Part shown: piece after piece, positions 1 through 64,000 of the stretch
How the letters are laid out: every line of letters begins with the position of its first letter
Numbering within the stretch: position 1 is the stretch's first letter
Source: Amphiscolops sp. MND2022
Taxonomy: Eukaryota
Length of the DNA: 64,000 bases
Direction of reading: 5' to 3'
Assembly: GCA_964187785.1 (NCBI GenBank)
Contig: OZ076409.1
Location: forward strand, 5,892,001-5,956,000
Translations under genes and position numbers: made by a program
The notes under the pieces: model-generated
Told to the model about the DNA's origin: nothing
The model's database searches: none
Seen by the model: only the letters and a program-made list of their open reading frames with translations

Positions 1-340
1 GCATATGCGCGCTAAAAGGGGGACCCTTTCGGATTTTTCATTATCCATTGTTGCAAAACATCAATAAAAATGAAGGGGGACCCTTTGGTGGATAAAAAAT
101 TTCGAAAAAGTCGCACAATGTCGAAAAAACTGGAAGCGGGCGGACCCTTTAGTCTCGCCCGGCATTGTGTCCCGCGAAAAAAGGAAAAACCTTTCTGGTT
201 CAGTTCGCTAGGCCAACAGGTACAATTTGACACCTTAAAGTTTCGTAGAACTTTCTAGAACTATTTTGGTCAGTTCGTGTGGATTGGAAAAAAGTCACTA
301 GTATAGTCGCGTTTCACTTCATGAAGCGCCGACTAAAAAG
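1..340 (-). mobile_element. Helentron/DINE-like non-autonomous element, family A (partial)
   Basis: Shares the GGGGACCCTTT core and the terminal TAGTCG…GCGCCGACTAAAA structure with the copies at 20824-21295, 27594-28008 and 39441-39914. Confidence 0.65.
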
Positions 341-1388: not shown

Positions 1389-4344
1389 GAGCTAGGATGA
1401 ATTGGAAAACAAGAGACGCGGAAACAATCATCATAAATTTGCATAAGAAATCTTCAAGCTCTTGTAGAAATTTTAAACCGGTTGGTCGGCGAAAATCAAA
1501 AGAGTCATTAAATTAGAAAAAAACCCTGAAACGTTTCAAGAAAATTGGCAAAATGTGCAAAAAAATATCAGCTTTGGTTCAAATCATATTTAGTGACTAC
1601 ACAATGTTTTTGAAGAATTGAAAAAAATGGAAAAAATTCACTCCGCGTTGCAATATTTACATTTTCCCCCAGCATTGCATGCTATTTCCTTATTGGCTTC
1701 AGAACGTCTTACTTCCGACTAACTCGTTAGAAACTCAAAGTTATCAGCTAGCTAACTTCTGACTCTCAAATTGAAAGGTTCAAAGGAAAAGCAACTAACA
1801 ATGATTAAAGAGGGGGGCAATTGAGATTGACGAAGAAATAACGAAGCTCAAATCATGTGCACTTGACATGAAGATAGTAACTTTAGCAAGTAATAGGGTT
1901 GGTTAATATGGGTTTAAGGGTTTACCGAGATTATGCAAAAAGTGGATGATAGAAAATAGAGATAATTCACTTTGAGATTGAAGCCAAGCCGCCCGCCGAC
2001 TTGAAAGGAGAAAGGTTCGCTTTCAAATTGCCCGCAGCGGCCGTGTCACTGATTAAGGGTGCCTTTCTTTGACCCGTTTTCATGAATCTTCACAAAACTT
2101 GAGGTCCTCTGAAAGCATCGAGCACTTTTTGAAGTGAAATTCACAAGAGCTAATCACTTTCATATCGACATATTGTATTGCAAAGTTCTGAACAAATGCA
2201 ATTCAATTCATTTTACATAACCTTCAAATTACATAAAGTCAGGGCAGTATAAGAGCTCATTTCCTTCAACTGGTAAATATTATATCTTTGTTTTTTCCTC
2301 CAAAATTCATATAATGCTTCGGGTGGTGGTTATTCGAGAAGGATTGCTCGTGTCAATTCGAAAATGGAATCAAGGCAAGTTGAAGCTTATACAATTGCTT
2401 AAGACAATGCCAGCTTGCGATCAAAGAAGCTCGGTTGGTTAATTTATCCTAGCTATTTGATATTCAGCTAGCATTGTAGTATCAAGTCGGGAAATCGACA
2501 CTTTTGTATTGACACATCATTCACATGATGAAGTCGATTAAGTCAAAATAACTCAATCAGTCACCATCTAATTTTCCAGAATGCCATCAACCACCGAGTT
2601 TGAAAAGGGGGAAAAGAAAAAGAAATTATTTGAGGAAAAGGCGAATTAGTGTTAAAACAATGCCAACAGGTAGGTAGGTGAAAATGTTTTAAAAAATGTC
2701 AGTGTACTATTGCATACATAAAGGGTAAAGGTACCCGTAGAACATACACACCTACTTACTACCTACAGACCACGCCCTACACATTATATACGTTGGTCAT
2801 TAGGTAACATTGCAAGAATGTTGGAAGTTGCATGAAAAATGAGTATGCATACAGTTGGAAGGAAACAGAGGAGCAAATTTGTATGGAATTGAGAAGGAGG
2901 AGAACAATAGGAATGGAATGAAGTAGAGGTTTAAAGTGGGCAATAACACTTCCTACACTTTGTGGCGGGAAACGAAAAGATCGGTGGTAAAAACACCGGA
3001 GAGAGAAAGGTTGCTAACGTAGGGCGGAAATGACTGCATGATGGTCCGTCTGCCATAACCAACCTCGCCAGTGATTTCGTCCTCAAATGAAGACAGCGAT
3101 TTTTTCGCAATCAATAAAAAATTACGAAACGCAAAAAAAAACATATAGGGAATCGCGAAAATTTGTCTTTCTTATCAACAATCTATTGGACTATCTGGGG
3201 TGAGTTGTTATTTGTGTCAATATAGCTTTTTTCCGAGCCACCGGCAAAAAAGTAACAGGAAAAAAGTAAAAATTAGCAAAATTTTACACTTCAGAAATAG
3301 CCTTTTCTCAATAACTGAGCAACTGGTTGCTAAGTTACTGTCCCACTCTAGTAACATAGTTTGCCACCACTGAAGACGCATATATAAGTTTTTTCAATGA
3401 AGATTCACTTATGAGTTTGACCGGCATTTGAAAGGCCCAACTCCCAGCCAAACTAGAGTGCATTTGAAGCTTAGGTAACGGGCTTTCAGGAGCAGAAAAC
3501 CGATTTGAGTTGCGGCTATTATTCGCGGAGAAATGAAGCTTTGAGGACATTTGGCCAAATTTTTTGTCAATTTCTCTACTTCTCAGTGTACTGTCGAGGA
3601 TAGACTGTGGTGGTGGTGGTGGTTAAGTTAGGATAGAATGATTCGAACGAATTGTTGCAGCAATTTCGTCACTTTTTTTATTCACTTTGAGACCGTCTCT
3701 CTTTCACTCTCAAATCCGCCGGTCTGTACAAAAACAGGGCAGCACCAATCTTTGTACTCCTATTTGATTCCTGATAAATTCGTCGCATTACCTCTTAAGT
3801 GGGAGCGGCGATTTCTTGCTTCCCTATAACTACTACTTTGACTACTAGCACAGTTGAATACACAAAATTCCTCGATTCTTTTCCCAATTACAGGTTTTTT
3901 CTTTCCCTCTTCCTGTTACATTATTTGAGCGAATTGTATTCTTGAATTTTGATGAAATACTAGCTGCTTTTTGAGGTGGCAATTCCGATTTCAAGCTTTA
4001 TTGATTGGATGAAATTGGGACCATCTGTCTTATCAACAACCCCACCCACATACAAACAACTTTTATCATTGAAAAAACTTCTTAGGCGAATGAAGAGATT
4101 TGGTATGGCTCTAAATACTTAGAGGATTGTCGAAGCCGTTTCGACACATTTTGAGTTTTGACAAAAAAGCAAAAAATCACCCTATTCAAGGATAGGATTT
4201 TATCACGCAAAAAGCTAAAACTGTATAGGAAAGCCCCTATTTTAACGCAAAGTTTCTGTTGGATACAAAACATGGTCGCAAAATTGCAAACAAGACCGAT
4301 CAAGAGAAAGATTGACCAAAAAAGTAGTTGACGGAAAAGGGAAA

Positions 4345-14889: not shown

Positions 14890-15295
14890 GAGCCGTATAT
14901 GTGGTAAAGGAGTCCGCTTAGATCTTTTTCCTTCTGACTCGCTCCAATCCCAGTCATACGAATTTATTGAAACTGTACACATAGGACCATATTATGGTGT
15001 AGAAAATGACTGTAGAAAATTTTGTTCGAATCGTATGGACAGTTTTTGCGAAAATAAAAAAAAGTCGAAAAATGACTTTTTTGGCCATTTTTGGGCTAGT
15101 TTTGGCTGTTTCTCACATTCCAGTCATACGATTTTGATGCCTTTGCGCACGCAGGGACCCCTTTGGGTGTAGAATGACTGTGCAAAATTTCATGAAAATC
15201 GCATGGATAGTTTTTCATGAAAAGGTCGGGAGAAAAAAAAACAGAAAAAAAACGACACGATTGCACATTAGTCGATAATTTTTTCTGACTCCTTA
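14890..15295 (-). mobile_element. Helentron-like family D (171-bp core)
   Basis: gccgtatatgtggtaAAGGAGTC at the left and GACTCCT at the right. The core is shared with 30070-30868, 43470-43762 and 44437-44734. Confidence 0.6.
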
Positions 15296-21295: not shown

Positions 21296-22889
21296 ATTGG
21301 TTTGGTACGGGACTCGAACGCAAGAGCTTCTGATTCACAAAGCCTGAAAATCAGCCTTAACCGCTGAGCCAAAAGGTGAGAATAACCTATCTGACAAGTT
21401 AAAGAATTGAACTTATAGAAATGTGTCAGTTCGCTGGGCTTTTAAAAAAGCCACCACTATAGTCGGCTTTTTCTAACGAAAAGCGACTTCTGAAAAATCA
21501 ATTCTGGTTAAACAGCTTTGACCATTGCAAGTTCCACCAATTGATCTCATATTCGTCTTTTAAAAAACCTCCCAGCCATACAAACTCAAAATCAAAATAA
21601 TTTCTACTACTAGTAGTTGAAGAAAAAACGCTGAAGGTTCAAAAAAAGTTTTGTGCCGATCATCATCAGAACGCCAATATCGATTACTTCAAAAATGAAA
21701 AAAAATCTACTTTCTCTAAAATCAATCAAGATGTGTCTTGCCAACTCAGACTGCCCGTCTAGACATTTGACTCTGTTTTACCAATTACAGACAGATGTCA
21801 CAAATACAAATGACGATGGCCAAGAGAAATTAGTTTAGAAACCAGAAAATCCAATTTTGAACCTTTTGTCGCTAACTTCTCAACAAAACCGATGACCAAC
21901 ATTGTATAAGTAGGTGTAAAATTTCTCCAAACCTAAAATTTATTTTTCCTTGAAAGGCATATCGTCAAAAATTCAAAGAGAGCTTTGAAGAAAATGTGAT
22001 GAGGAAATAAAGATACGTGATCAAACCGCATTAAACAGAAATACAAACCTGATTGTTATTGAGATTTGAAAATGGCGGGAAGTAAAAACTAAAACATCTC
22101 AAGACTGGCATAATTGGGCCTTCTAAATTTTCGTACGACGCAAATTAGATTCAATCTAGTTTTCAGTAATTTTTTGTATTATTCTGACGAACAAACGCGG
22201 CGAAAACGAGAAAAAGAAGGTAAATAATGGGAGTGAAGAAAACACTTAATAGACAGCTGCGATTGGGAAATTTGTAGAATGATTTGAAAATTGGTGAAAC
22301 TGCGGATGAATAATTGAGACTACGACTGGCGAGCGACCAGCGAAGCATTGCCAGAGTATCATCCAGAGAAAAGTATCTGGATCAGAGAACAGTACAAAGT
22401 GAGTGTGACGTTTTTGTTGATTGTCCAACAGCAGCTACTTATCCATAATTCACTTCCCGACTTTTCCTTCTGCCTCCGCTGCTGAAATCCAGTTTATATG
22501 CCACTTATCCAGAGAATCCCAGCTAATGTATGCCAAAAACTGAGCGATAGTTTGTTGAAAATTCGTCTGTAAGCTCAATTCGGAACAAGCTGAGTAGACC
22601 GAATCAATAATTAATCTCGAGAAGCAATCAGTGATTCAGGAAAAACTGCAAAGTAGGTATGCGACAATGCTTTTCATGGGAATATGTATTGAGAATAAAG
22701 AATTTTAGGAAAGTATTATGTATCAGCTAACAGCACTGTACTTCGCGATTTTTAAAAAAATCAAAAATACAAGCTTTCAAGTTCAAGTTACCGTTGTTTA
22801 ATGGTTTAATGGGCTGTTTGGTATGAAAACTGAGCTAACTACTGCACCTTTCAATTAAAAATAAGGCGAGATAATGCGCCAACAAATAA

Positions 22890-24300
22890 ACACCTACTAG
22901 CAGAAAACACCAAACTACTGAGTCCACATCAATTTGGTTTCAGAGCAAACTTTTCCACTGCGGACGCTCTCCTTTATGCCACAGAGAAAATTCGGTTTGA
23001 TATTGATAACAAAAACGTTGTTGCGGCAGCCTTCTTAGATCTCTCAAAAGCATTTGATTCGATCTCCCACGAAATCCTTTTACAAAAACTTCACAACCTA
23101 AATTTTAGCGAAAATTCTATTGCGATGATTCGGAGTTTCTTAAAACGACGGTTACAGAAAGTCGTTCTCGAAACAACATCTTCTGACTGGATTGAATTAT
23201 ACCAAGGTGTTCCACAGGGCACCATCTTAGGACCCCTTTTGTTTAATATATACGTGAATAGTATGCGATACAGTGTTAGTAAGCCATGCGAACTAGTACA
23301 GTATGCTGACGATACTTTTATATTTGTGAGTGGCAAGAAAATTGAAGATGCGATTAATCTGTTAGAAAAAAACGCAAAATGCTTAGTTGATTTTTTCCAT
23401 AGACATCGTCTTAACCTCAACGACAAAAAAACTGAATTTATCGTTTTCTGCCGAAAATCCACGAACGGTTTGACGAAAAAACTCAAATTGAAAATAAAGG
23501 ATCACCTCATTGAGCACAGAACTATTGTCAAATATCTTGGAGTTTATTTGGACCAAAACCTCACATATGAACCAGAAGTGAAACACCTGCTGAAAAAAAT
23601 GGCTTGTGGTATTAAAACTCTTTACTGTGTCAGAGAATTACTACCCGAAAAAATATGCTTATCACTACTAAACGCTCTGGTCATCAGTCACCTACACTAT
23701 CCAGCACTGTTACTGAACGGAATTTCACAAAATCTAATAACCACGCTCGAAAATCAATTAAGCTGGGGCATTAAAGCTTGCTGTAACAGAAACAAATACG
23801 AATCTTCAAGTGACCTAAAACTCAAACACGAAATTTTCCCTGTCAGATTACTCTTTGACTACAGAGCAAGTACATACTTCTGGAAACTTCAGAAAAATTT
23901 AGTTCCAGCTTTCAATGGGTTGAATAAAATATCCACTGACAAAATCAAATTTCATGACCGAACAGACTCCCTAATTTTTGATGCAAATGCCACAACCAGT
24001 TTTTTACAGAACTGCTTTATGAAAAGAGCAGTTGCCCTGTGGAACAACGTGCCGAAGTCAATATCAAAAAACAAATACTCTTACGAGACTATAAAAACAA
24101 AATTGAAACATTTCTACAACTCTCAAATCAAAAAAGAAGTAGAACAACCTGAGCATAGAATGAAATGTTGGAAAGATTACCGTTTTTAATATCACGTTTA
24201 CACTTTTAAATAATTATCTTTGTTATCTCGTGTTATTTCGTATTATTTTTGTACACTACTGAGCTTTTACACTACTGTTTTTTTTAAAATGATTGAATGT
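22890..24300 (+). mobile_element. 5'-truncated CR1/L2-group LINE (RT and C-terminus intact)
   Basis: Open frame from about 22890 to 24189 with QFGFR, FLDLSKAFD, GVPQGTILGP, YADD and KYLG motifs. Confidence 0.92.
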
Positions 24301-29478: not shown

Positions 29479-30239
29479 TTGTTTTGTCGAAATATCCTGT
29501 ATCAGAATTCAGACTTTGTTTTAAAAAGCCTTTCACCTACCCTATTCGAATAAGCAGACGAAGTTGAGACAAGCCTAAAATCGAAAAATCTCGGTTGGCT
29601 ATTAAAATTAGTAGCATCAAAGCTGAGGCGCTATTTTGTCATGAAAAGGTTCTTTAAATGTAAAGATTTTGAATAATAGGCAACCCACAGTGGCGAAAAG
29701 GAATTCGAAATGCTTGCTGAGTCACTTCGATTTCGTTTCGAAATAAATGAGCATTTTGTTCTTCAAAAGTTATGAAGTCTTGTCTTTGTTCTTGCCTCAG
29801 ATTTGGTCAAAAGTAACAAGTAATTTTCAGGTTAAATTTTTCGAGGCTTTCTAGATTAGCTTTGCAAGTTAGTGACATTGACTTCACTGCTGATGTTTAG
29901 GGTGACAGTTTAACGGAAATGAATTTCAAGAGACACAAAAATACGAGACTTTGATTCAAACCAAGAAGACACCAGAGAACATTGTTTGTTCTCCAGAGAC
30001 ACACTCACAATATGCTCTAAAAGTGAAACAGTATTTGCTTTTTGAACACTAAGGCAACCTATTAGCAAAACCAGAGCCTCATGTGCGGAAACGAAGTCAG
30101 ATTAGGCCTTTCCTCTCTGACTCGCTCGAATCCCAGTCGTACGATTTTGATTGAATTGCACATATTAAGGCCTTATATGGTGTAGAAAGACTCCATAAAA
30201 GTTCTTTCAAACAGTAAAGAGTATGAGAAAATGGAAAAG

Positions 30240-30810
30240 GTCCAAAATTGGCCGTTTTTTGGTCATTTTTGGGTTAATTTTGGCCATGTTTCTCAGATGC
30301 CAGTCATACGATTTTGATGCCATTGCACACATAGGACCCTAAGATGGTGTAAAATGACTGTAGAAAATTTCGTTCGAATCATACGGACAGTTTTTCAAAA
30401 AATGAAAAAAGTCCAAAATTGGCCGTTTTTTGGTCATTTTTGGGTTAATTTTGGCTATGTTTCTCAGATGCCAATCATACGATTTTGATGCCATTGCACA
30501 CATAGGACCCTAAGATGGTGTAAAATGACTGTAGAAAATTTCGTTCGAATCATACGGACAGTTTTTCAAAAAATGAAAAAAGTCCAAAATTGGCCGTTTT
30601 TTGGTCATTTTTGGGTTAATTTTGGCCATGTTTCTCAGATGCCAGTCATACGATTTTGATGCCATTGCACACATAGGACCCTAAGATGGTGTAAAATGAC
30701 TGTAGAAAATTTCGTTCGAATCATACGGACAGTTTTTCAAAAAATGAAAAAAGTCCAAAATTGGCCGTTTTTTGGTCATTTTTGGGTTAATTTTGGCTAT
30801 GTTTCTCAGA
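30240..30810. repeat. 171-bp tandem repeat (~3.3 near-identical units) inside a family D element (30070-30868)
   Basis: TCCAAAATTGGCCG recurs at 30241, 30412, 30583 and 30754. Confidence 0.95.
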
Positions 30811-30990
30811 TACGAATGGGTTGGAGTAAGAAAAGGTACGATTGCATAAGTAGTCGACTCCTAAAAACGACCACCTGAAACAGTCCAAAAGGGATCGGAT
30901 ATAAAAATTACTTTTTAAACCAAACAACTTACCTTGCTACGGAAAAGCCAATAAGCTGAGTAAACGGAAAACTGAACAATCAATCTCTAC

Positions 30991-50548: not shown

Positions 50549-51348
50549 AGCCGGGGTGGTCATAAGTCACAAGGTTTTCAGTCATCTTTTATGATCGAGC
50601 GACGACTGCATACCTTCCTTGAGGAAGAAAGTATCTTCGAAGAAGAACGAGAAGTGTAACGTCAAGCTAGCAGCTACATTTTAGAACTGGGATAATGCTC
50701 AGGATGCTTTAACAAGAGACCGGTGTCCTATAACAACCTAAACACCAGCACTTCATCACAAAAGGTCTCAGTAGGGACTTTTCCAAGACGCCGTGGAGAC
50801 TCCTCATATTAGAGCTCCGTGGCGACGTGCCGGCACACTCAAAGTCCGGACACATCCCACAAGCACGTAAAAACGTATCCTAAAGAGTTCCTGCGGTCCT
50901 ACATGCCTCCAAGGTCCGAAAACGGGGTTCTAGTCTGAAAGCATTCTATTGGGAAAATAACCTTCAAAATACCAGCACAAGGATCTAGCAGATCCTGCAT
51001 TGCCCTAAATCTGCAAATGAACAATAATAACAGCATAATCAATCAAAATCGACATTTCCAGCGTTCTCTCATTGATTCTACAGTTTTCCAGTTCTTCTTA
51101 GAATATGGGATATTTGGATCCCGGGCCATTTCGTCGTAAAGAACTTGTAGTTTCCGAGTGAGATGGCACAATTCCGAGTCTCAGTATGTGTCTCTCAGTT
51201 AGTATGTCGTCTTCTTGTCTTTTTCGTCTTGGGAGGGTCTTTCGTTGCGTTCTCTGTTGTTCTTTTTTGATTTCAACGACCTGCTAGGTCGGCCATTTTG
51301 ATTCGCACTTTTTTGGTCCTTGATCGAATTTTTGGTGTCGACTGGTGG
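50549..51348. repeat. Copy 1 of an ~800-bp direct repeat (LTR-like from 50655, right end truncated)
   Basis: Nearly identical to 51756-52555, with only a handful of differences seen. Confidence 0.93.
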
Positions 51349-51684: not shown

Positions 51685-51860
51685 AAATCATGTGTTGATT
51701 TCATGAGATGTCATCACTGAATCTGGTCGATAATACGTTTCATCATGTGCCCCTAGCCGGGGTGGTCATAAGTCACAAGGTTTTCAGTCATCTTTTATGA
51801 TCGAGCGACGACTGCATACCTTCCTTGAGGAAGAAAGTATCTTCGAAGAAGAACGAGAAG

Positions 51861-52563
51861 TGTAACGTCAAGCTAGCAGCTACATTCTAGAACTGGGATA
51901 ATGCTCAGGATGCTTTAACAAGAGACCGGTGTCCTATAACAACCTAAACACCAGCACTTCATCACAAAAGGTCTCAGTAGGGACTTTTCCAAGACGCCGT
52001 GGAGACTCCTCATATTAGAGCTCCGTGGCGACGTGCCAGCACACTCAAAGTCCGGACACATCCCACAAGCACGTAAAAACGTATCCTAAAGAGTTCCTGC
52101 GGTCCTACATGCCTCCAAGGTCCGAAAACGGGGTTCTAGTCTGAAAGCATTCTATTGGGAAAATACCCTTCAAAATACCAGCACAAGGATCTAGCAGATC
52201 CTGCATTGCCCTAAATCTGCAAATGAACAATAATAACAGCATAATCAATCAAAATCGACATTTCCAGCGTTCTCTCATTGATTCTACAGTTTTCCAGTTC
52301 TTCTTAGAATATGGGATATTTGGATCCCGGGCCATTTCGTCGTAAAGAACTTGTAGTTTCCGAGTGAGATGGCACAATTCCGAGTCTCAGTATGTGTCTC
52401 TCAGTTAGTATGTCGTCTTCTTGTCTTTTTCGTCTTGGGAGGGTCTTTCGTTGCGTTCTCTGTTGTTCTTTTTTGATTTCAACGACCTGCTAGGTCGGCC
52501 ATTTTGATTCGCACTTTTTTTGGTCCTTGATCGAATTTTTGGTGTCGACTGGTGGACGTTACA
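51861..52563. mobile_element. LTR (703 bp), TGTAACGTC…GACGTTACA
   Basis: TG…CA ends with 9-bp terminal inverted repeats. Purine tracts abut both ends. Confidence 0.75.
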
Positions 52564-53537: not shown

Positions 53538-56368
53538 TTAACAACAGCTACATTTCAGGAACATTTTACAGCCACTATCTTCATATTTAGTTTTGTAGTG
53601 ATTCCAGTAAATTCTCTTTAGATCGGATTCAAATGCGGCAGGGTGGTTTGGCAATTTAATGTTGTATTCTTGTTGTACAAAATTGCTAAGTTTGATGATT
53701 CGATTGAAGAAAAATTCCCGTGTACACTTTAAACGTGTGTAGTCAGACATGAAAATATTTTTGGTGTTACTTCTGAGCTCATAATTATTGTTGTATTGAT
53801 TTGAACAGACATAATCCCATATGGTGAAGTCAAAAAGGCCCATAGTGAGCTTGTTGAACAGTAGCAGATCCTGCATTTGAAGATGTAAAAGAGATCGGTA
53901 AATGGTGATATTTGTCAAGAAGTTGATGAAATGAGCTCCTATAGTCAATCCACTTGAAACAGATCCGCTGCAGCCTTTGTATTTTTTTCAAGTCTCCTCT
54001 GTTCGGATGCCAAACACCTGAAGCATAAGCAAGTGCGGGTAAAATGTAGATGCGGTACAATTTAAATTTCATGTCAGGGTTTAGCATTTTAGGAAGATTC
54101 CGACGTAACATGGCTAGGCGTTTATAACAATTTGCTATTTTAATGTTTATGTGATCGGTCCATGTTAGATTTGGAGAGACCCAGACACCAAGATCACGAA
54201 TACTCTTTGTTGTAGGATAGATATCATTTTCTCCCATGTGTAGGACAAGGTTATCACATTGAATCTTTGATTTACTGAAGTGTAATAATTTCGTCTTCTG
54301 AAAGTTAAAGTCGAGTTTGTTTTCTTCACTCCACTTCATTAGTGATAACAAATCGTTCTGAAGATCAATCAGAGATGAACTTGCTAGTTTGAGGTCGTCA
54401 GCGAATAGAAATGGAACACACTCACAATTCTCGGGCAGGTCATTTATAAACGCAATGAAGAAAAGCGGGCCGACCACTGAGCCTTGGGGCACACCACTTG
54501 TAATAGGACACTCTTCTGATTGACAGTTTTCAATTTTAACTTGTTGCACTCGGTTTTGCAAATATGAAGCTATTAGTTTGAGTAGAGATCCACCCAGACC
54601 CAGAGATCGTAGTTTTTTCAGTAGTATAGAGTGAGGGACTCGATCAAATGCTTTAGAATAATCCAAATAGATTGCAAAGGCTTTTTCTTTGGAATCGATC
54701 CACTCAAAGATTTTATCAAAGAACGACAGTAACTGGATGACACATGATCGGGATTTTCGAAAACCAAATTGATGGGAGGATAGTTTGTCCTGTAGATGCT
54801 TGGAAATGCTCCTGAAAAGAATTCTTTCAAATGCGATTGAAAGTTTGCTCAAAGAAGCAATTGGACGGTAGTTGGCTATCTCATTTTTCAATCCCTCTTT
54901 GAATATAGGTGTAATAATGGTTTTTTTTCCAGGATGTTGGGTACACTCCAGTTTCTACGATAACCTTTAATAGGTTGTAGAAATGTATTGAGAGACTGTT
55001 TGAACACTTTCGTAAAATTTGACCATGAATATCATCAGGGCCAATGCCATCAGTTGATAATTCTAGAGCCTCTTTTGCGATTTCGGTAGATAGTTTTACA
55101 TCATTCAGTACATTATCAGTAAAATCGGTGAAGGTATCGTCAAAAGCATTGAATACTGATCCAAAATACTGATTGAAGGCGTTTGCAATTTTGGAACTTC
55201 CAGTAATTTTTTTCTTTTTGGGATCAATCATTGTCTTCGGAATGTCGCAAATTTTGAGTTTTCTAATCAGTTTGTAACAGTCATTTACGTCACCATTTAC
55301 GGCACAAAACTTGTCGAGGAATACATTTGTGTCCAACTCAATAGAATTTTCAAGTTCTTTACAGATAGTATTGTATTTGATATAATTTTTCAAGTTGAGG
55401 CCATTTAGTTGCTTTAATTCTGTTTGGAGGCAGTTGAAGAGATGAATACTGTAAGAGCTCAAGTAATCCGGCAACATCTTTCGCTTTTGCCGTTTGCTAA
55501 CTAAGAACTGTTTGAGAATGTTTTGAAATGAAATCAGCCAGTCCGCAATGAAGTCGACAGAATTTTGGTCTAGTTCGAACGAGAATAGTGACTGAGCTAG
55601 TGTTAGGTCAATCGAATTTAAGTCGGTTGCTGCGAGACTGTATTGTTTGAGGTCAGTTTGTGTGTACATTGTTTCAGAGTTTTTAGGGATACCCACAGAT
55701 ATGCTGAAATGATCAGAAAAAGTTGGATGTTTTTCAATATCAAGAACTTCAGGCTCGTCATAGTTTGTAAATACCAGGTCAAGGACATTACCATCTTTGT
55801 GGGTTGGTTCCTTTACAAGCTGGGTGAAATTTTTAGCAGTAAGGAATTTTTCGGTTTCACAGAAATATTCTGTACTGATCGCTGGGAACTGTGCCCAATC
55901 CTCGTTTGGTAAGTTGAAATCGCCCATAATTAATACTTTATCAATGGAAGCGTTACTGAGAACATTATAGGCCGAGGATAAGCAATTTGAGATTACATCA
56001 TCAGGAACACGATACTCACTAGGGTTTGGAGGATTGTATAAAACAATAATTCCATAGGTATCAATTGATATACCACAACAAAATGTATTGTCCAAGCATT
56101 CTATTTTTGATGCAACCAGTTCTTTTTTTGCCATAATAGTCACACCTCCATGCTGATTGGTTTCACGCACGGCTTTTGCTATGACTGAGTAGGCAGCTGT
56201 GAGAAAAGTATTGTCTGAAGAAGATTCATCCCACCAGGTTTCAGTAAGGCAGAGAATATCAGGTAATCTTGATTGGAGAATACACGATAAGTGAAGTCTT
56301 TTTTCTAGGGATAAGATACTGCGGCAGTTTAAAAGAAAGATGCGATAGACATTTTCGTAATTTTCTAG
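53538..56368 (-). pseudogene. LINE ORF2p (APE endonuclease plus RT) with two frameshifts (~54925 and ~53890)
   Basis: LNCRS, LCLTETW, GDFNLP, LDLVF and SDH (APE). NYRPI, QFGFR, DYSKAFD, GVPQGS and FADD (RT). C-terminal CSCC. Confidence 0.92.
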
Positions 56369-57220
56369 TCAGTTCACCTCTACCAGTTCATCGTCTTTGT
56401 AGAGTCTCAATTTTTTTATTTTCAAACGGCTACGATCTATGCCACTCCTGATCAATTCGTAACGTTTGGCTAACAGTTGTTTTTCCAGTAAAAGGTCCTT
56501 TGGGGACAGTTCAGGGGTGATCAAAACCCTTTTGTTCAGGAAATATTTTTTCTCGATGGCCTTTGCGATGACTTTGCGAGCATCCCATACAGATCCAAAT
56601 GTTACAAGTAGGTTCCGAGTTCTATTTTTATCAAATTTCCCAAGTCGTTGAGTTTTAATAACATTTCCGGAGCAATTTAGATCATCAAGAACATTTTCGA
56701 CTTCGGACTTATCATGCAGTTGTCTATCTATGAAAAACTTGGAATCCATTTCCTCAATTCCGAATATTCTTATTTTGTAATGATAATTTTTGTCCTCAGT
56801 TATGATCGTTTCAGGTACATGCCGATCTCGTGTTTTAGGTTCTTTCGTAGATATAGGAATTTTGTTCGGCAACTTTTCTTCAATGACGTTTTCGACGATT
56901 GTTTTGATATCTTTTCTAAGTTCATCTAGTTTAGCATTTTCAGTTGAGTCATCAAAGGCTGATTTTTTGCTAACACACGAATCGCAAAAATAGGAGAAAT
57001 TTTCAGACGAGGATAAGTAAACGAATACTTCCTTCGGTTTTTTCAGACACTGAGAGTGAAGCCAGTGAGAACATTTTTCACATTGAATCCAGTCCCTCGT
57101 TTGTTGTGATCCATGACATACAGAACAGAGTCCATGATCCACAGCACATGTTCCACCCAGTTGAATTGTCCCATCACTGTTGGAAGAGGAGACCAGTGCA
57201 CTTCTTGTGAGAACCATCAT
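56369..57220 (-). CDS. LINE ORF1p with PHD finger
   Basis: CSVC…WIQCEKCSHWLHSQC…YFCDSC, then a coiled region, IRIFGIEE, RLGK…R.LLVTF and ITPELS. Confidence 0.9.
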   Translation of the reverse strand: MMVLTRSALVSSSNSDGTIQLGGTCAVDHGLCSVCHGSQQTRDWIQCEKCSHWLHSQCLKKPKEVFVYLSSSENFSYFCDSCVSKKSAFDDSTENAKLDELRKDIKTIVENVIEEKLPNKIPISTKEPKTRDRHVPETIITEDKNYHYKIRIFGIEEMDSKFFIDRQLHDKSEVENVLDDLNCSGNVIKTQRLGKFDKNRTRNLLVTFGSVWDARKVIAKAIEKKYFLNKRVLITPELSPKDLLLEKQLLAKRYELIRSGIDRSRLKIKKLRLYKDDELVEVN

Positions 57221-57401
57221 CAAGTTTTCATATAACCGGAAACTATTTAATAAGTTTATCACAACAATTAGGCTGTTCGTTGTGACAATTAGTTTCAAGC
57301 TAGTTTAAAACTTCTTTTGGGGGAGGAAGCACTCTCACGTCTCTTACCAGCAAAGTTAGGAATATTTTAATGCAAGACTTTAATTGCACTTCTTTGTTAA
57401 T

Positions 57402-57442: not shown

Positions 57443-57630
57443 CCAAGCTGGGACGTTACCTACTAAGTAATTGCATCAATAAGACTGCATTCAAAATTTA
57501 ATAACTAAAATAGCGCATGGTACATGGTATTTTATTAATTGCACTGAGTGGGGTTGAAGTTGTACTTGGTGAGTTTGGGTTTGATTGGTTCAGTTCCATG
57601 CTAGGACTGTTCACTGTTGGCGTCTTTTAT

Positions 57631-60600
57631 TCAATCAGTTTGTTCTTGTGGCGCTTCGTTTAATGTTTCTGGTAGCATATCCATTGACAGCAGTTCTTTG
57701 GGGTTCACGCTGGGCAATTCATTGAGTTCTAATTCTATATCAGCTACCTCCGACTGGGATATAGATACTGGTATGTTTTCAGGACGGTTTGGTGGCATCG
57801 TTACGTCATTGTCTGGAACAATTATATTGTCTTCTGACATCTGATTGGCTTGATAAGTATCATTGGTGGATATATCCATGTTCGCTGCTGTGATAACTTG
57901 TGGGGTATCTTCTGGAATCATGGTAGATATTACTGATGTTGTGCTGCCACCTGCAGAGTTTTCCTGTCCCGCTGCCTGTCTTTCTGCAGAGGAGCCCACT
58001 GGGCATTGCTCTGGCAGCTGATTGGCGAGGTCTTGGCGTCCATATCTCTTGAATGTGTTTTTGTAGGTTTCTACTGCAGTTAGATAGTCTGTGCACACTG
58101 AGCTGTTTTCCTCTTGTTGCTTAGCTATCACTTCATAAAGATTTCCATTGCCAATTTTGGGTTGCTTGGGGCTTCTGTGTTGATGGGCAAAGGTTTTCGT
58201 TTCGGTTCTTTGGCGATTTTAGGTATGGTTGCATTTAGCATTTGGTAATTGCGATAGATGGTCTGGTCTGCTTTTGGGGGATTAGGGGACCCTACTGGGT
58301 CTACAGGGTGGAGTTCTAATGACATTGGTATTGCGCACCGCGCTCTGGCTCGGATCAGAGTTAAGAAATTGTGCTCGATTTGCTTCTTGTCTTTGATAAT
58401 GGTGTACGTCATTAGGGGTCCAAAGTTGGCAAAGTCGCGTACTAGCGTCTGAAATCCAGGTGGTCTGGCGTCGTCCTGAGGGTTTACAAAGTGCAGTATG
58501 GATAGTGTGGGTGAGCTAGCAGCTACTCTGAGTGGTTGTGTAGGGTACCTGAGAGCCATCATGGAAGCAAATGTGGCCAGACAATCGGGGCAATCACTGG
58601 GATTAAATCTTCAGTTTCCACTAGCATTAGGCTGGTAACTTGCGAGGAGAAGAGGAAACCTGGCAGGTTTTTGTCGTTGTTTTGCTGGTTCGGTGGGTCA
58701 GGAGGGTCTATGGTGATCATGATGAGACGTTTATCCACGCTGAATAGATCCAGGCCAGCATTGATTCGATGTTTTCGGCTAGTTGAGCATTGAGCTTCAG
58801 AGCGCCCGCGGAATCCAGCGTTTTCAGAATTGCGTTGATCCAGCCTCGTTGGTTTCTTGCAAATATTAAGAAGCTAAGCAGGCAAAAGTTGGCTTTGCTC
58901 AGAACTAATTTCTGTACCAGGTGCGTTGGGCCTTTATAGAACAAGCTCAGGCCAGCGGCCATCAGGTAGGCGAGAAATTCACTGATCTTGGCCCGTTGCA
59001 TGGCTTCCACATACAACTTCGCTTGTTGCTCATCTAAGTTGTTCTCACGCTGTACTATTTTGGGTACCCAGAATGGTGAGATATTATACAGGAATATCGG
59101 GAATGGGAGTCCATGACGTTCGGCCACTTCGGCCAGGGTTTCCTGTAGTTCTAGGTGCCATGATTGGTATGAGTGTCGTGGGTTGGTTCGGTTTTCCTGT
59201 GCTGTTTTCTGGGCTAATATTGATAGAAGCACTAATGTTGGAGAGACCATGTTTGGTTTTGAGTCAATTGCTTGTGTCGCTACTGGGAAGACAGTCACTT
59301 CAGTGCGAGTTTGTCTGATCTTCTCTGTCTTCTTGGAGAGAGCTACCAGCTCTTTATGGAATTTCGCGTTGTGCGTCGTCTCGTCCAGAGTTGACTCGTC
59401 TCTTTTTTTTTCGAACCATATGTTGTCAATCATGTTCGCTCTCTCGTGTTCGTTTGGGTCTCTGTTACGGCGCATTCCATTATCGTCAAAGATGCGGTGT
59501 GCCATTTGCATCCCAAAATCGAAGGCGGTGGCATCATCGGCTGACAATTGCGATTTTCCTTGGTATCCAGTATAGCTTGTAGAGCCTTTGATACTTCAGC
59601 CAAGAGTGCAGAGTATGAATTCTCACATGGGCGCCAGGTCATGGCACTGACCCTTAGGTTTTGGGCTACAATGTAGAAATGAAGGTTCTGGGCGTGGGCG
59701 GCTTCAGATAGTAGATACAACAATTGTTGGAGTGGTAGTGGTAGATATATATATCCTGGGGGTGACACGAAGATTACGCCTACTGTGGGCTTTTTTCTCT
59801 GTACTTTCCCAATAACATTCCTCATGGTTTTAATGTATGCCACTACTTCGCCAGTCAATACTGCTTCCGTTAGCCTTCGATTTCCTCCTTCAAAGTGTTT
59901 AACTGTTCCTCGAAGAGCCAAGTGACCAATTACATTGCTGTAGATCAATATTGGGGGAAATGGGATTGTTTCAGAGTGATTTGCGGTGGGACCGAAGACC
60001 TTGCAGGTCACCTCGGCCATTTCCTCTAACGATGAGCACGGCAGATTCATCACTGGAACATCCATTAGAGTGTTGTTCATATTGGCCGTTGCCTTCATTG
60101 TCGAGTCCATGAATAAGGCGATCTTTGTCTTTTGAAGCACCTCTTTGCCCATGGGTTCTGCTTCCTCTACCCCTTCCCCGCTGAAAGTTGAAGGGAGCAT
60201 GAGATGGGGGTCGTTGTCGTGAGGACGTTGTATACATGTGGAGGCAGAAGCTGAAGTGGATGCTAGCATCGGTGGTGGCATGGCTGGTAGTAGGCACGTG
60301 AATTGTTGTGTTGTGACAAGTGACATTGGTGGTTTGTTTCCAATGTTGACGGGAGCTGAGGAGGCGTGTAGGGGTGCCATGGGGGAAGGCCTAGCAGGCT
60401 CACTGTAACGCAAGCTTGATCGGTTGTCGTCAAAGTGGTGAGTCAGGTCATGGCCCTGCCATGTTCCCTTGTGGAGTTCGGCTGTGCGGTGGTAGGAGCC
60501 AATTCCAATAGAAATGGAGAGCGTGAAATCAGGGTGTGTTTCTAATGTCTGCATTTGGGCGGTTAGCATGGCTATCCCGGTGGCTAGTGTTGGTGAGACG

Positions 60601-60782
60601 TCAGATTGAAGGTTTGCCTGGGTCAGACCAGGCTGGTCGGTGTAGGTTTGGGGCTCTGCGACAGGCAGCGTGGACACGGAAGATACTGGCCCAAGTGGAC
60701 ATGGTAATTGGTTCCTGGATGATTGGTCCATTGGCCAAAATGGTAGCACCTTTATTGGAATTTGATCGTTTACAAACTGCAA
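57631..60782 (-). pseudogene. Extra retroelement ORF (~1000 aa, broken by frameshifts) with an SGNH-like domain
   Basis: Four consecutive same-strand ORFs (60782-59430, 59547-58717, 58562-58128, 58131-57631) with uniform composition. Confidence 0.65.
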
Positions 60783-61030
60783 ATGAGTGATAGCAATGCT
60801 GGTGGTGGCAGGTGCAAGCGCGTGAACAGGACTGAACTGAAAGAAACAACTAGCGTCAATTTTTGGCTAAAATGGTGTTACGTGAACTCAAACAAGGTAT
60901 AGTTAAAAATGTAGCAGGATTGACTAAACAGTCGGCGTAAAAAAATTTGAACGGTTGTTCAATTTACATGAACGCTTAAAAGAGGAATAGTCCATCCAAT
61001 GACTATTGCTAATTGCTACAAGGACTCAAG

Positions 61031-64000
61031 CTAATTTGTGCTTTGTCCGGGTAGGGTACATTTTGACGTATGCAATTGATACATCACCCTGTCGTGGAGC
61101 ACTATGTCGACTTTTGAATCAATGAAGTGATCTCGCAACATTGAATACCAAGTTGGTAGTATGTTGATTGACCTTTCAGGATCATAGATGGGAAGGTGAA
61201 TTCGGGTGACTTGGTCTTGCGTGAGCTTTTGCACTAGATCTAGCAGGCACAGATGTAGTACATCATGCAATATGGGATGTTTGTTGGAGGCTCTTGTAAA
61301 TAGTAGAAACATGCTGTTGTTCCATGGCGCGTCGGGTGACTTAGCGAGGTGTATGGCCTTCCCTACGGCAGGTCGTAGTTTGAAAATCTTCTCTTGACCA
61401 TATTCCCTGATGACATAACGTGCCATTGCTGACTAGGAGAGCAGGTCAGCCGGACAGCATATTACCACAGTACCGAGTGCTTGCAGTATATTAGTCTCAG
61501 CGTAGGTTATCCAGGGTAAGTAATTGGACTTGACTTTCGGGAGCGTTGTTAACAATTTCCCTGTGAGTGTGCTTTGATTGTCTTGATTTGGTGCGAGATG
61601 ATCTAGAATGGCTTTGCGGTCTTGCCATATTGTTCTGCGTAAGGGACGGTCTCCCAAGTTTGTGCAGGACTAATTGTGAACTACGGAGAGTGCTTCAAGC
61701 ACGGTCGTTGGATTCTCGAATGCATACATGTATTTGTCTATTAAACGTATTTTGGCTTGGCGACAGAAGATAATAGCTAGTAGCTGTGACCAATGTTGAC
61801 TAAGGAATGATCCGCGGTAGATGTCTGCTAGATGGAAACAGTGTGTCCTCGAACTCCACTAGGGTACGTAAGTTTTCTAGGAAATTTAGCAGAATTCCTG
61901 GAGTCACTGGTGATACTTCATCCAAGGAGGTGACTAGTAGCCAGCAGCCAGTTGATGGGTGATACACATCTCCCGGGGGGGGGGAGGTCACGCCCAATTG
62001 TTGCTATAGCTTTTGCGCGGTGATACAGCGTACCATTGCTATGTTCGTGTCTTCTGGTCCAATTTCTCCGAAAACCATCGATGGTGGGAGTGGAGGAATT
62101 ATAGCGGCTAAGGTAATTTCAAGTCCACTCTTATCATGCCGCGTCCACTCTTTGAATCGATAGGCAGGACAGTCTGAAGGTGATGTCTCGTGCACAGCCT
62201 TCAAAGTGGTTTCCAATGGTGGGATCACACCTGGTTCAATGCTCGAGTATGTCTTTTCTACTGTAATGAGAATATGGTGTACTTGTGGACCGTCCTGGTT
62301 TTCAGTCTGTATGGCCCAGATTGTACGTTGTTCATGGTCTTCAAAAGTATCCTCTTCAGCTAAAATGGGGGTGAGAGCGCCCACTCCCCGGGCCAATTGG
62401 TCGTCCGGTGGTTTTCGTTCGATTAGGTTGACTCAACTACAGTAGCGGGAACCACATGTTCCGCACCGGTATCGTGGTGCCCTGTTACGTCGTAGTTGGT
62501 AAGGTGGGGGTTGTGAAGGTGTTGGTGGTTGTGCTTCTCGCTCCTCTGGTGACCTACTTTCCGCAATGTCGGGTAGTGTCATAGCACGTTCTAAAGTTTG
62601 TGATTGAATTCTAGTTTCTGTTCTTCCTCTCGATCGAGTGTATGGTCTGTTTTGTTGTGTGAGTGCTCTGCTTGATGAAGTGGTGCTTCCTCTTCTACGA
62701 CCTAGAGGTCTACCTCTTGGTCTGCCCCTCCTGCTTGCAGTTCTCCCGGGTTTTGGTAATGCTTCAATGTTTCGGTCAGATTCTTGGATTTCTTCGTTGT
62801 ATTCTTCTTGGGGTTCAGCTTCCTGTGCAAGTTCTAGTCTTCCCGAGCTACCATTTTGAGAACTGTATGATGGAAAGTTACTCAAAGTGTCGGTAAGGGC
62901 TGGGTTCGACAGTAGTGGTGCCGAAGTTCCTGATGGTGAGGGTATTAGGCTCTGTGGTTGTTCGGGCAAGACTTCTTCCTGATCTGAGAACAATGGTTCC
63001 AGGTCGTCAATGTCAGGGAAAACCACTGGTTGCTGTGTTTCTGGAGAAGGTGGTGCTATTGGTTCTTGGTCAGATTCTGATTCGGATGGATATCCAAAAT
63101 GGCTAAATCGCCTGCGTGGGATTCCTTATTGCAAAGCGGATTGAGTGCGTGTTTGAATTGTGAGGGGTGGAACGGGTGCAGTTGGTACCATTTCGAATGA
63201 TGCCTCTGGCAGTTGTTCTGGAAGGAACGAGTCACACGATATGTCCGATGTAATTTCCTCATTGCTTTCTTCTGCGTATGGGTCTGCAATGATGGCGACG
63301 TTCTGGTCTGGTCCAAATGGTTGGTGTGTTGCCCAATCCCAGGATGCAGGCACATGCTCCTTCAATCGCTCAAAATGGACTTTTTTGGCCTGTATCCCAT
63401 ACGTATAGTCGTCCATCTTGTAGCACGTCTGTGACCTTTATGAGGCCCGCGCCAGGCGCGGAGAAGCTTGCGGGTACCGCCCTTGGGAATTATATGGCAG
63501 AAAACCCAAACGGCGTCGCCTACGGCGTGTGCTTTTGCTTTCAAGTGTCGATCAAACTTCTGTTTCTGTCGTACCTGCGCCTGGTGCGTGTTTCTGCGAA
63601 CAAGTTCGTGAATTTCCTGTTGTCTGGCGAGTAGGTGTTCTACAAATTCTTCCTTAGACTCGAATTCTCGTGCTGCAAACTCGGGATATATGAACGAGAG
63701 CGGAATGGATTTTTCCGCGCCATGTTGGAGCATGTACGGAGAGAACCCAGTTGTAGCATGCCTGGTTGAACTGTAGGCACCCAGGACTCCATCTATGTCC
63801 TCGTCCAAGTCGAGCATTCTGCGAGAAGTGTAGACTCGGAGCAGAGTGAGCAATGTTTTGTTTTGTCGTTCCACCAGGCCATTGCCTCTTGGGTGTGCTG
63901 GAGTCGATGTCACTTTAGTTTTTTGCGAGGCTTTCATCAGTTCCTGTGCAATTTCCGCGGTGAAGTTGGTGGCGTTGTCTGACTGCATCCTGGCGGGGGT
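61031..64000 (-). mobile_element. Decayed Gypsy/Ty3 pol: integrase plus long C-terminal extension with macro-like domains (continues beyond window)
   Basis: QSDNATNF…PAHPRGNGLVERQN…HATTGFSPY…W.GP..V…VHFERLK. The downstream ORFs are separated by single in-frame stops or frameshifts. Confidence 0.9.

Follow-up and report, generated by a model that had tools for sequence, protein, structure and literature searches.

The stretch of DNA analysed here (the window) comprises 64,000 nucleotides of Amphiscolops sp. MND2022 (assembly GCA_964187785.1, contig OZ076409.1, positions 5,892,001 to 5,956,000 of the forward strand), and the last 6.5 kb of its minus strand hold the 3′ part of the pol gene of a Gypsy retrotransposon, which enters from past the right edge. 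In the family to which this copy belongs, pol ends, behind a long linker that follows the integrase, in two tandem macro domains of the type of human TARG1 (an ADP-ribosyl hydrolase), in which the catalytic residues and the glycine loops of the pocket have been replaced. This anatomy by itself is regarded as nearly certain. As for what it means, the reading favoured here, tentatively and with more doubt than confidence, is that a captured TARG1-type enzyme was duplicated and remodelled and may now serve as a non-catalytic adaptor on the integrase tail, tethering the integration complex.

The element stands out by its composition, with a G+C of 0.47-0.49 vs about 0.37 elsewhere in the window. 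The integrase core is open to 63365; downstream, the reading frame of pol shifts near 63437-63373, 61840 and 61085 and is interrupted by the in-frame stops given line by line below. The window copy is dead, and it is the family and the change from enzyme to pseudoenzyme that carry the interest. The protein relative P0004 aligns by tblastn in four segments covering 64000 to 61058 at 77-96% identity (residues 1018-1533 over 63389-61839 at 76.8%), and the integrase is 96% identical to those of P0004 and P0023. Self-comparison gave no repeat within 57500-64000, and the 5′ part of the element lies past the window edge. The features of this pol copy, with motif coordinates counted by hand on the sequence ruler, are as follows:

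63365..64000, minus strand: 3′ part of the Gypsy integrase core, with the beginning of the integrase C-terminal domain (Pfam rve_3, E 0.004; tblastn to P0004 residues 815-1002, 95.7% identity).
62466..63389, minus strand: long pol linker, acidic and Pro/Ser-rich, then Arg-rich; in-frame stop 63128-63126 (tblastn).
62706..62732, minus strand: two overlapping cores inside the linker, seen in the sequence, which we take to be AT-hook-like, with no database match; found in 6 of 7 relatives scanned, the distant P0216 included.
62433..62465, minus strand: Cys cluster, a possible metal site (CxxCxxxxCxC pattern in relatives); stop 62435-62433 in the window copy.
62097..62282, minus strand: small beta-alpha-beta-beta region of no assigned fold, before the macro pair (residues 17-79 of the P0017 model, predicted local distance difference test (pLDDT) 50-70).
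61736..62078, minus strand: macro A, a shortened TARG1-type macro fold with a D-x-x-R loop (P0212 model, profile match); stop 62006-62004, frameshift near 61840.
61514..61735, minus strand: helical connector joining macro A and macro B (model helices 211-226 and 235-244); stop 61672-61670.
61085..61513, minus strand: macro B, the last domain of pol, a TARG1-type macro fold of full length whose pocket is rebuilt (profile, Foldseek, VIA-align, residue table); stop 61435-61433, frame change near 61085.

The place of the macro pair in the polyprotein can be read from relatives whose frames are open. With the C-terminal 212 residues of the window pol as query (the stop read as X), 45 longer proteins were found among 354 candidates, with identity up to 86%; integrase Pfam families occur in five of them, and reverse transcriptase (RT) as well in two of the five. 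P0178 holds, in one open reading frame (ORF) of 3,178 aa, gag (zf-CCHC), protease (PR), RT, RNase H and integrase, all assigned by Pfam, followed by the linker and the macro pair, so that the Ty3/Gypsy domain order (gag, PR-RT-RNase H-integrase) is present in a single chain; the identification of the element as Gypsy, made in the original prediction from the letters alone, is supported by this order and by the integrase match. Among 92 tabulated proteins, 31 contain an integrase core; both macro domains lie in the same chain in 22 of these, and the remaining nine stop before the pair. The possibility that the macro region is a separate insertion was rejected, since it is in frame with pol in those 22 of the 31, and the in-frame fusion proposed at the outset is thus seen in open members. 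The cluster sizes (41, 178 and 45 by cluster look-up) point to a multi-copy family. No Chromo family, the mark of a chromovirus, appears in the Pfam scans of P0023, P0178, P0177, P0170 and P0171, and no DNA relatives of the window family were found when metagenome and viral contigs were scanned. The Cys-cluster pattern is present in 32 of the 45 longer relatives, most of the other 13 beginning downstream of the cluster, and its identity between subfamilies is 77-96%. Both the AT-hook-like cores and the Cys cluster recur in P0216, which together with P0217 is all that a search with the distant-member profile returned for longer relatives. In the open relatives, the stretch separating RNase H from the integrase zinc finger (some 250 residues, about 1820-2070 in P0178) has no Pfam match.

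Neither macro domain is recognised by Pfam: the window peptides have no macro match there, the macro region of six relatives is unmatched, and among 64 alignment members Macro PF01661 is reported once only, at E 0.3. Since Pfam also misses the motif-complete domain of a sister lineage described below, its silence is uninformative here. The window peptide alone has no sequence match in PDB either. When the profile of the 64-sequence family (A2) was compared with PDB, five sequences were returned at E up to 10, all of them human TARG1; the macro B profile matches human TARG1 at E 5.9e-7 (best) to 1e-6, with about 16% identity, and the two are in ungapped register over the C-terminal half. A wider macro B search gave 123 representatives, with identity down to about 30%. 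The AlphaFold model of P0017 has a mean pLDDT of 79 and about 90 in both macro cores, and its macro B finds TARG1 first in Foldseek (E 1.4e-8, TM 0.83, root-mean-square deviation (rmsd) 2.3) and in VIA-align (Z 16.7, rmsd 3.3 over 141 residues), followed there by DarG (15.9) and Poa1p (12.2). An Atlas lead for macro B agrees but is weak (score 0.90, PF01661 on 14% of one cluster). For macro A, folded alone from P0212 with pLDDT mostly above 90 over residues 1-100, TARG1 is again at the top in VIA-align (Z 11.7, rmsd 2.4 over 101 residues; DarG 11.0) and first in Foldseek (E 7e-4). Human TARG1/OARD1/C6orf130 (PDB 4J5Q, 4J5R, 4J5S, 2LGR) is thus the best profile and fold match of macro B and the best fold match of macro A, and by predicted fold both domains belong to the macrodomain superfamily, in the ALC1-like class of TARG1, which also includes DarG, SCO6735 and yeast Poa1p. 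The peptides on which the original prediction was based do lie on the minus strand where it had placed them, and the collinearity with TARG1 that it had noticed by eye reappears in the profile alignment; with relatives included, the likeness to TARG1 exceeds what chance would give. It had also named beforehand two outcomes that would speak against it, the lack of a macro fold and the lack of the region in intact members; what was found is a match to the macro fold and the presence of the region in open members.

Macro A has no direct sequence match to TARG1, and its link in sequence runs through macro B, with which it is matched in profile-profile comparison at a probability of 93% (E 3.3e-7). 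The D-x-x-R loop is aligned in both domains at the place where TARG1 has GCGLD, and a derived loop common to the two copies indicates that they arose by tandem duplication; the simplest reading of the sequences is that the duplication came after the loop change. The second, more diverged copy that had been suspected is therefore real and starts about 62078, near where it had been put, but it is longer than was thought: it ends about 61736 rather than 61830 and crosses the frameshift near 61840.

The residues of the macro B pocket were read in TARG1 numbering, counted on the profile alignment, which agrees with the residues named in PMC5928194 and PMC9411070. For this purpose 214 proteins were realigned, of which 101 cover macro B, and 33 non-redundant rows were left after rows more than 80% identical had been dropped; some of the 33 are decayed fragments, and P0144 was left out as a spurious repeat match. 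Lys84 and Asp125 are the catalytic dyad of TARG1 (PMC9411070). Unlike TARG1, the family has Arg at the Lys84 position in 31 of 33 rows (Lys in 1), and Asp at the Asp125 position in none, where Pro (10), Ser (9), Gly (7), a gap (4) or other residues (3) are found. Both glycine loops are replaced as well. The Gly123 position is Glu in 20 of 33 rows and Gly in five (Glu in 86 of 101 over all rows), the Gly121 position is Asp in 29 of 33 (97 of 101), the Gly43 position is Ala in 25 of 33 and Gly in one, and mostly bulky residues stand at the Gly41 position. Replacement of the GCGLD loop had been noted originally for the window copy; it is real and a trait of the family, and since it is family-wide, decay of the window copy was rejected as its cause. 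In human TARG1 the substitution G123E abolishes ADP-ribose binding and catalysis and leaves RNA binding intact (PMC5928194), and since the Glu at this position matches the binding-dead mutant, the label of ADP-ribose reader is doubtful. Of the earlier suggestion of a binding-only or inactive module, the inactive part agrees with the loss of the catalytic residues, whereas the binding part is weakened by the Glu at Gly123 and the bulky residues at Gly41. It is thus quite probable, as far as the sequences tell, that the macro pair is not a canonical ADP-ribose hydrolase.

A sister Gypsy lineage offers a comparison for this change. A metagenome scan with the distant member P0130 found four loci. 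In one of them (L002), integrase is followed on the same strand by a motif-complete TARG1-like domain, then a linker and lastly one remodelled domain; the integrase is 51% identical to that of P0004, the motif-complete domain (1530-1976, plus strand) matches human TARG1 at E 4e-21 from the single sequence, and the copy has stops and frameshifts. The order in L004 is identical, with the TARG1-like domain at 108-330 (plus strand). Ten longer relatives of this lineage were found (P0219-P0228), among which P0223 carries integrase and motif-complete domain within a single open frame, and P0220 stays open from the motif-complete domain deep into the linker. Pieced together from such overlapping open frames in different copies, the sister lineage would have one continuous ORF from integrase to remodelled domain. 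Of 11 sequences (the ten relatives and the read-through of L002), 8 show all four motif patterns, among them the Thr-Lys pair and the Gly-x-Asp loop, and the other three have one or two of the four. A profile built from the motif-complete sequences finds macro B at a probability of 85% (E 6.8e-6) but has no direct match to macro A; macro A was not seen by eye in the sister loci, and a profile search found no motif-complete TARG1 copy in the window or its family. The motif-complete domain is thus a candidate active ADP-ribose eraser in a long terminal repeat (LTR) retrotransposon, and the earlier idea that such a module counters host poly(ADP-ribose) polymerase (PARP) defence fits this copy better than the two domains of the window family.

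The two lineages were also examined for constraint. In the window family, comparison of subfamilies (P0004 vs P0039, P0198 and P0206) gave identities of 95-97% for the integrase core, 68-70% for macro A and 60-63% for macro B, both macro domains being free of gaps, 62-63%, ungapped, for the beta region before macro A, 49-51% for the helical connector, 50% with 16 gaps for the linker, and 24-27% for the spacer that precedes the module. In the sister lineage, the ratio of nonsynonymous to synonymous substitution rates (dN/dS) of the remodelled domain is 0.15, 0.15 and 0.10 in three pairs, two of them near saturation, covering 119 codons, and that of the motif-complete half-domain is 0.24. The ratios of 0.10-0.15 indicate that the remodelled domain is maintained beside an intact-looking enzyme.

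The favoured reading may be put as a sequence of events. A Gypsy lineage would have acquired, behind its integrase, an ADP-ribosyl hydrolase of TARG1 type and then duplicated it; one copy would have been remodelled, losing the catalytic Lys/Asp pair and changing the glycine-rich phosphate loop to D-x-x-R. The sister lineage would have kept the motif-complete enzyme and one remodelled copy, whereas in the window family, where no motif-complete copy is found, the remodelled copy would itself have been duplicated. The resulting pair, presumably staying on the integrase after processing, would most likely be a non-catalytic adaptor without the usual ADP-ribose binding, which, aided by the AT-hook-like cores and by the Cys cluster, would tether the integration complex either to a host protein or to chromatin. 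Tethering is favoured because of the position at the integrase end, the AT-hook-like cores and the conserved Cys cluster, by analogy with the chromodomains of other Gypsy elements (10.1101/2021.11.30.470311). Several observations weigh against this reading. Some 400 residues separate the domains from the integrase C-terminal domain, so they may be cut off as a separate protein. In eight proteins their net charge runs from -10 to +2, near neutral or negative (a crude measure that takes in overall charge and not surface patches), so that direct nucleic-acid binding by the domains is not suggested. The position of Asp20, which we take to be the adenine-binding residue, is kept in 23 of 33 rows (with six gaps; the window copy itself deviates from the family here), and Thr83 in 26 of 33, so a nucleotide could still bind. 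SCO6735 is an active hydrolase without both catalytic residues, and DarG retains only the Lys of the dyad (PMC9411070, PMC7050489); the activity of SCO6735 makes the motif test insufficient to rule out hydrolysis. The residue register rests on profile alignments, not on the pocket of the model; the most distant members speak for it, since Gly is retained in them at 123 and the residues that follow match TARG1 without a gap. The relatives were collected through the macro module, so family members without it would be missed. Finally, dN/dS covers the sister lineage only, and its linker control, at 0.33, is also below 1.

The same observations bear on what else the pair could be. It may be freed by the protease of the element and act apart from the integrase as a host-interaction module, either an RNA or protein binder or a decoy against ADP-ribose-based restriction, like SUD (SARS-unique domain) in the severe acute respiratory syndrome (SARS) coronavirus; we regard this as unlikely, but as the most serious of the other readings. 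The long linker looks cleavable, the macro domains evolve faster than the integrase core (60-70% vs 95-97%), and the sister polyprotein holds an intact and a remodelled macro domain, which parallels the architecture of nsp3, in which SUD is a pair of macrodomains that bind G-quadruplexes but not ADP-ribose (PMC2674928); the RNA binding retained by TARG1 G123E (PMC5928194) points the same way. However, the domains here are not basic, no cleavage site was identified, and SUD fits the fold far worse than TARG1 does (Z 7.3-7.8 vs 16.7), which makes this an analogy and not kinship. The near-neutral charge suggests a protein partner over bulk nucleic acid, whether the pair is a tether or a released module. 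Another reading, in line with the original prediction but rather improbable, is that macro B has kept the ability to recognise or remove ADP-ribose, or a similar adenine nucleotide adduct at the ends of DNA or RNA, through a changed mechanism, and so directs integration to PARylated chromatin or reverses ADP-ribosylation by the host. The kept Asp20 and Thr83 positions, the conservative change of Lys84 to Arg, the new invariant-like Asp and Arg of the loop and the tolerance of the class to dyad loss (SCO6735, DarG) speak for it, and the action of SIRT6 on LINE-1 ties ADP-ribosylation to retrotransposon control (PMC4695847); on the other hand, the prevailing Glu at Gly123 together with the Asp at Gly121 should block the pyrophosphate, the Gly41/Gly43 loop is replaced too, and a remodelled copy that coexists with a motif-complete one in the sister lineage is likely to have a different job.

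Still more remote is the view that the macro domains are passengers that have lost their function and are kept only through their place in the pol frame; we give it very little credence. Conservation much below that of the integrase and the many truncated or decayed database copies would suit it, but the domains are conserved without gaps well above the adjoining spacer, their folds are confident (pLDDT about 90 in both cores), the derived motif is common to both copies and to relatives down to about 30% identity, the sister-lineage dN/dS is 0.10-0.15, and one stop codon would suffice to shed a terminal passenger. A broader proposal, which we think doubtful, is that a whole Gypsy clade is built on ADP-ribose biology, in which a TARG1 eraser would first have acted against host ADP-ribosylation of cDNA, RNA or proteins, and a D-x-x-R pseudo-macrodomain would then have come to read another ligand and direct integration.

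Compared with known systems, tethering by a non-catalytic tail has its nearest counterpart in chromoviruses such as MAGGY, in which an accessory host-derived domain likewise stands at the C-terminal end of Gypsy pol; the family here differs in having another fold, a linker of about 400 residues and no chromodomain in the Pfam scans. Unlike TARG1 itself, the domains form a tandem pair inside a retrotransposon polyprotein, with macro A shortened. Macro-domain ORFs have been reported in epsilon-like endogenous retroviruses of fish (PMC4977317), which are also LTR retroelements with a captured macro domain; by their description, however, those are additional ORFs of Retroviridae, whereas here the element is Ty3/Gypsy and the domains are fused in frame to the end of pol, in tandem, of TARG1 type and remodelled. 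In the SARS coronavirus, SUD-N and SUD-M lie beside the ADP-ribose-binding X domain of nsp3 as tandem macro folds without ADP-ribose binding, and that lineage, too, has an intact macrodomain; but SUD belongs to another macro class and origin, its surface lysines bind G-quadruplexes whereas the domains here are not basic overall, and its loss of ADP-ribose binding was measured, while in the Gypsy domains it is deduced. Giant Gypsy elements such as Burro of planarians have extra domains, and rotifer retroelements have GDSL esterase ORFs (PMC6431247); a very long single gag-pol ORF with captured domains is likewise present here, where a GDSL-like extra ORF may follow, and no macro domain is listed among the giant Gypsy extras in the excerpt of PMC6431247. 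The literature searched gave no account of a TARG1-type macro domain fused to Gypsy pol, and term look-ups in PMC6338049, PMC12859917, PMC13524379 and 10.64898/2026.05.21.726589 turned up no relevant passage; subscription journals, repeat databases (Repbase) and supplements were outside its scope, and a prior mention is possible.

Downstream of pol lies one further frame of probable element origin:

59433..60866, minus strand: downstream sense ORF of 478 codons, probably the second ORF of the same element (ORF list).

Its G+C and skew are the same as those of pol, and it has no Pfam or PDB sequence match; a GDSL/SGNH-like segment at about 60149-59547 is a lead only (Atlas 0.92, PF13472 on 21-30% of cluster members). 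The sense frames 59595-58717, 58610-58128 and 58218-57631 (minus strand) have no Pfam match and an element-like composition, and may continue this ORF across frameshifts. Right after the Gypsy sequence, 53830-57304 (minus strand) holds a long interspersed nuclear element (LINE) whose ORF1 has a PHD finger and whose ORF2, for endonuclease/RT, is broken by one frameshift near 54900; another reverse-transcriptase frame, at 22834-24186 (plus strand), has 451 codons, matches Pfam RVT_1 at E 4e-33 and is LINE-like by eye. An 800-bp direct duplication of 99.5% identity (50549-51348 and 51755-52555) may have arisen recently, may mark the two ends of a small element as its terminal repeats, or may be an artefact of assembly, and 30130-30811 is a tandem array whose unit is about 170 bp, with related copies near 14950, 27060, 43500 and 44500.

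Domains at the integrase ends of Gypsy elements set the sites of insertion and the encounters with host defences. Those known so far are readers of histone marks, and with a TARG1-derived pair ADP-ribose-type folds would join this list of integrase tails. Because Pfam recognises neither domain, tails of this kind have probably been under-annotated. If a clade centred on ADP-ribose should prove real, it would imply an undescribed PARP-type host restriction of LTR retrotransposons and an evolutionary path parallel to that of coronavirus Mac1 plus SUD. The series formed by the sister and window lineages is, moreover, a natural experiment in the change from enzyme to pseudoenzyme, in which the natural substitution equals the G123E made in the laboratory.

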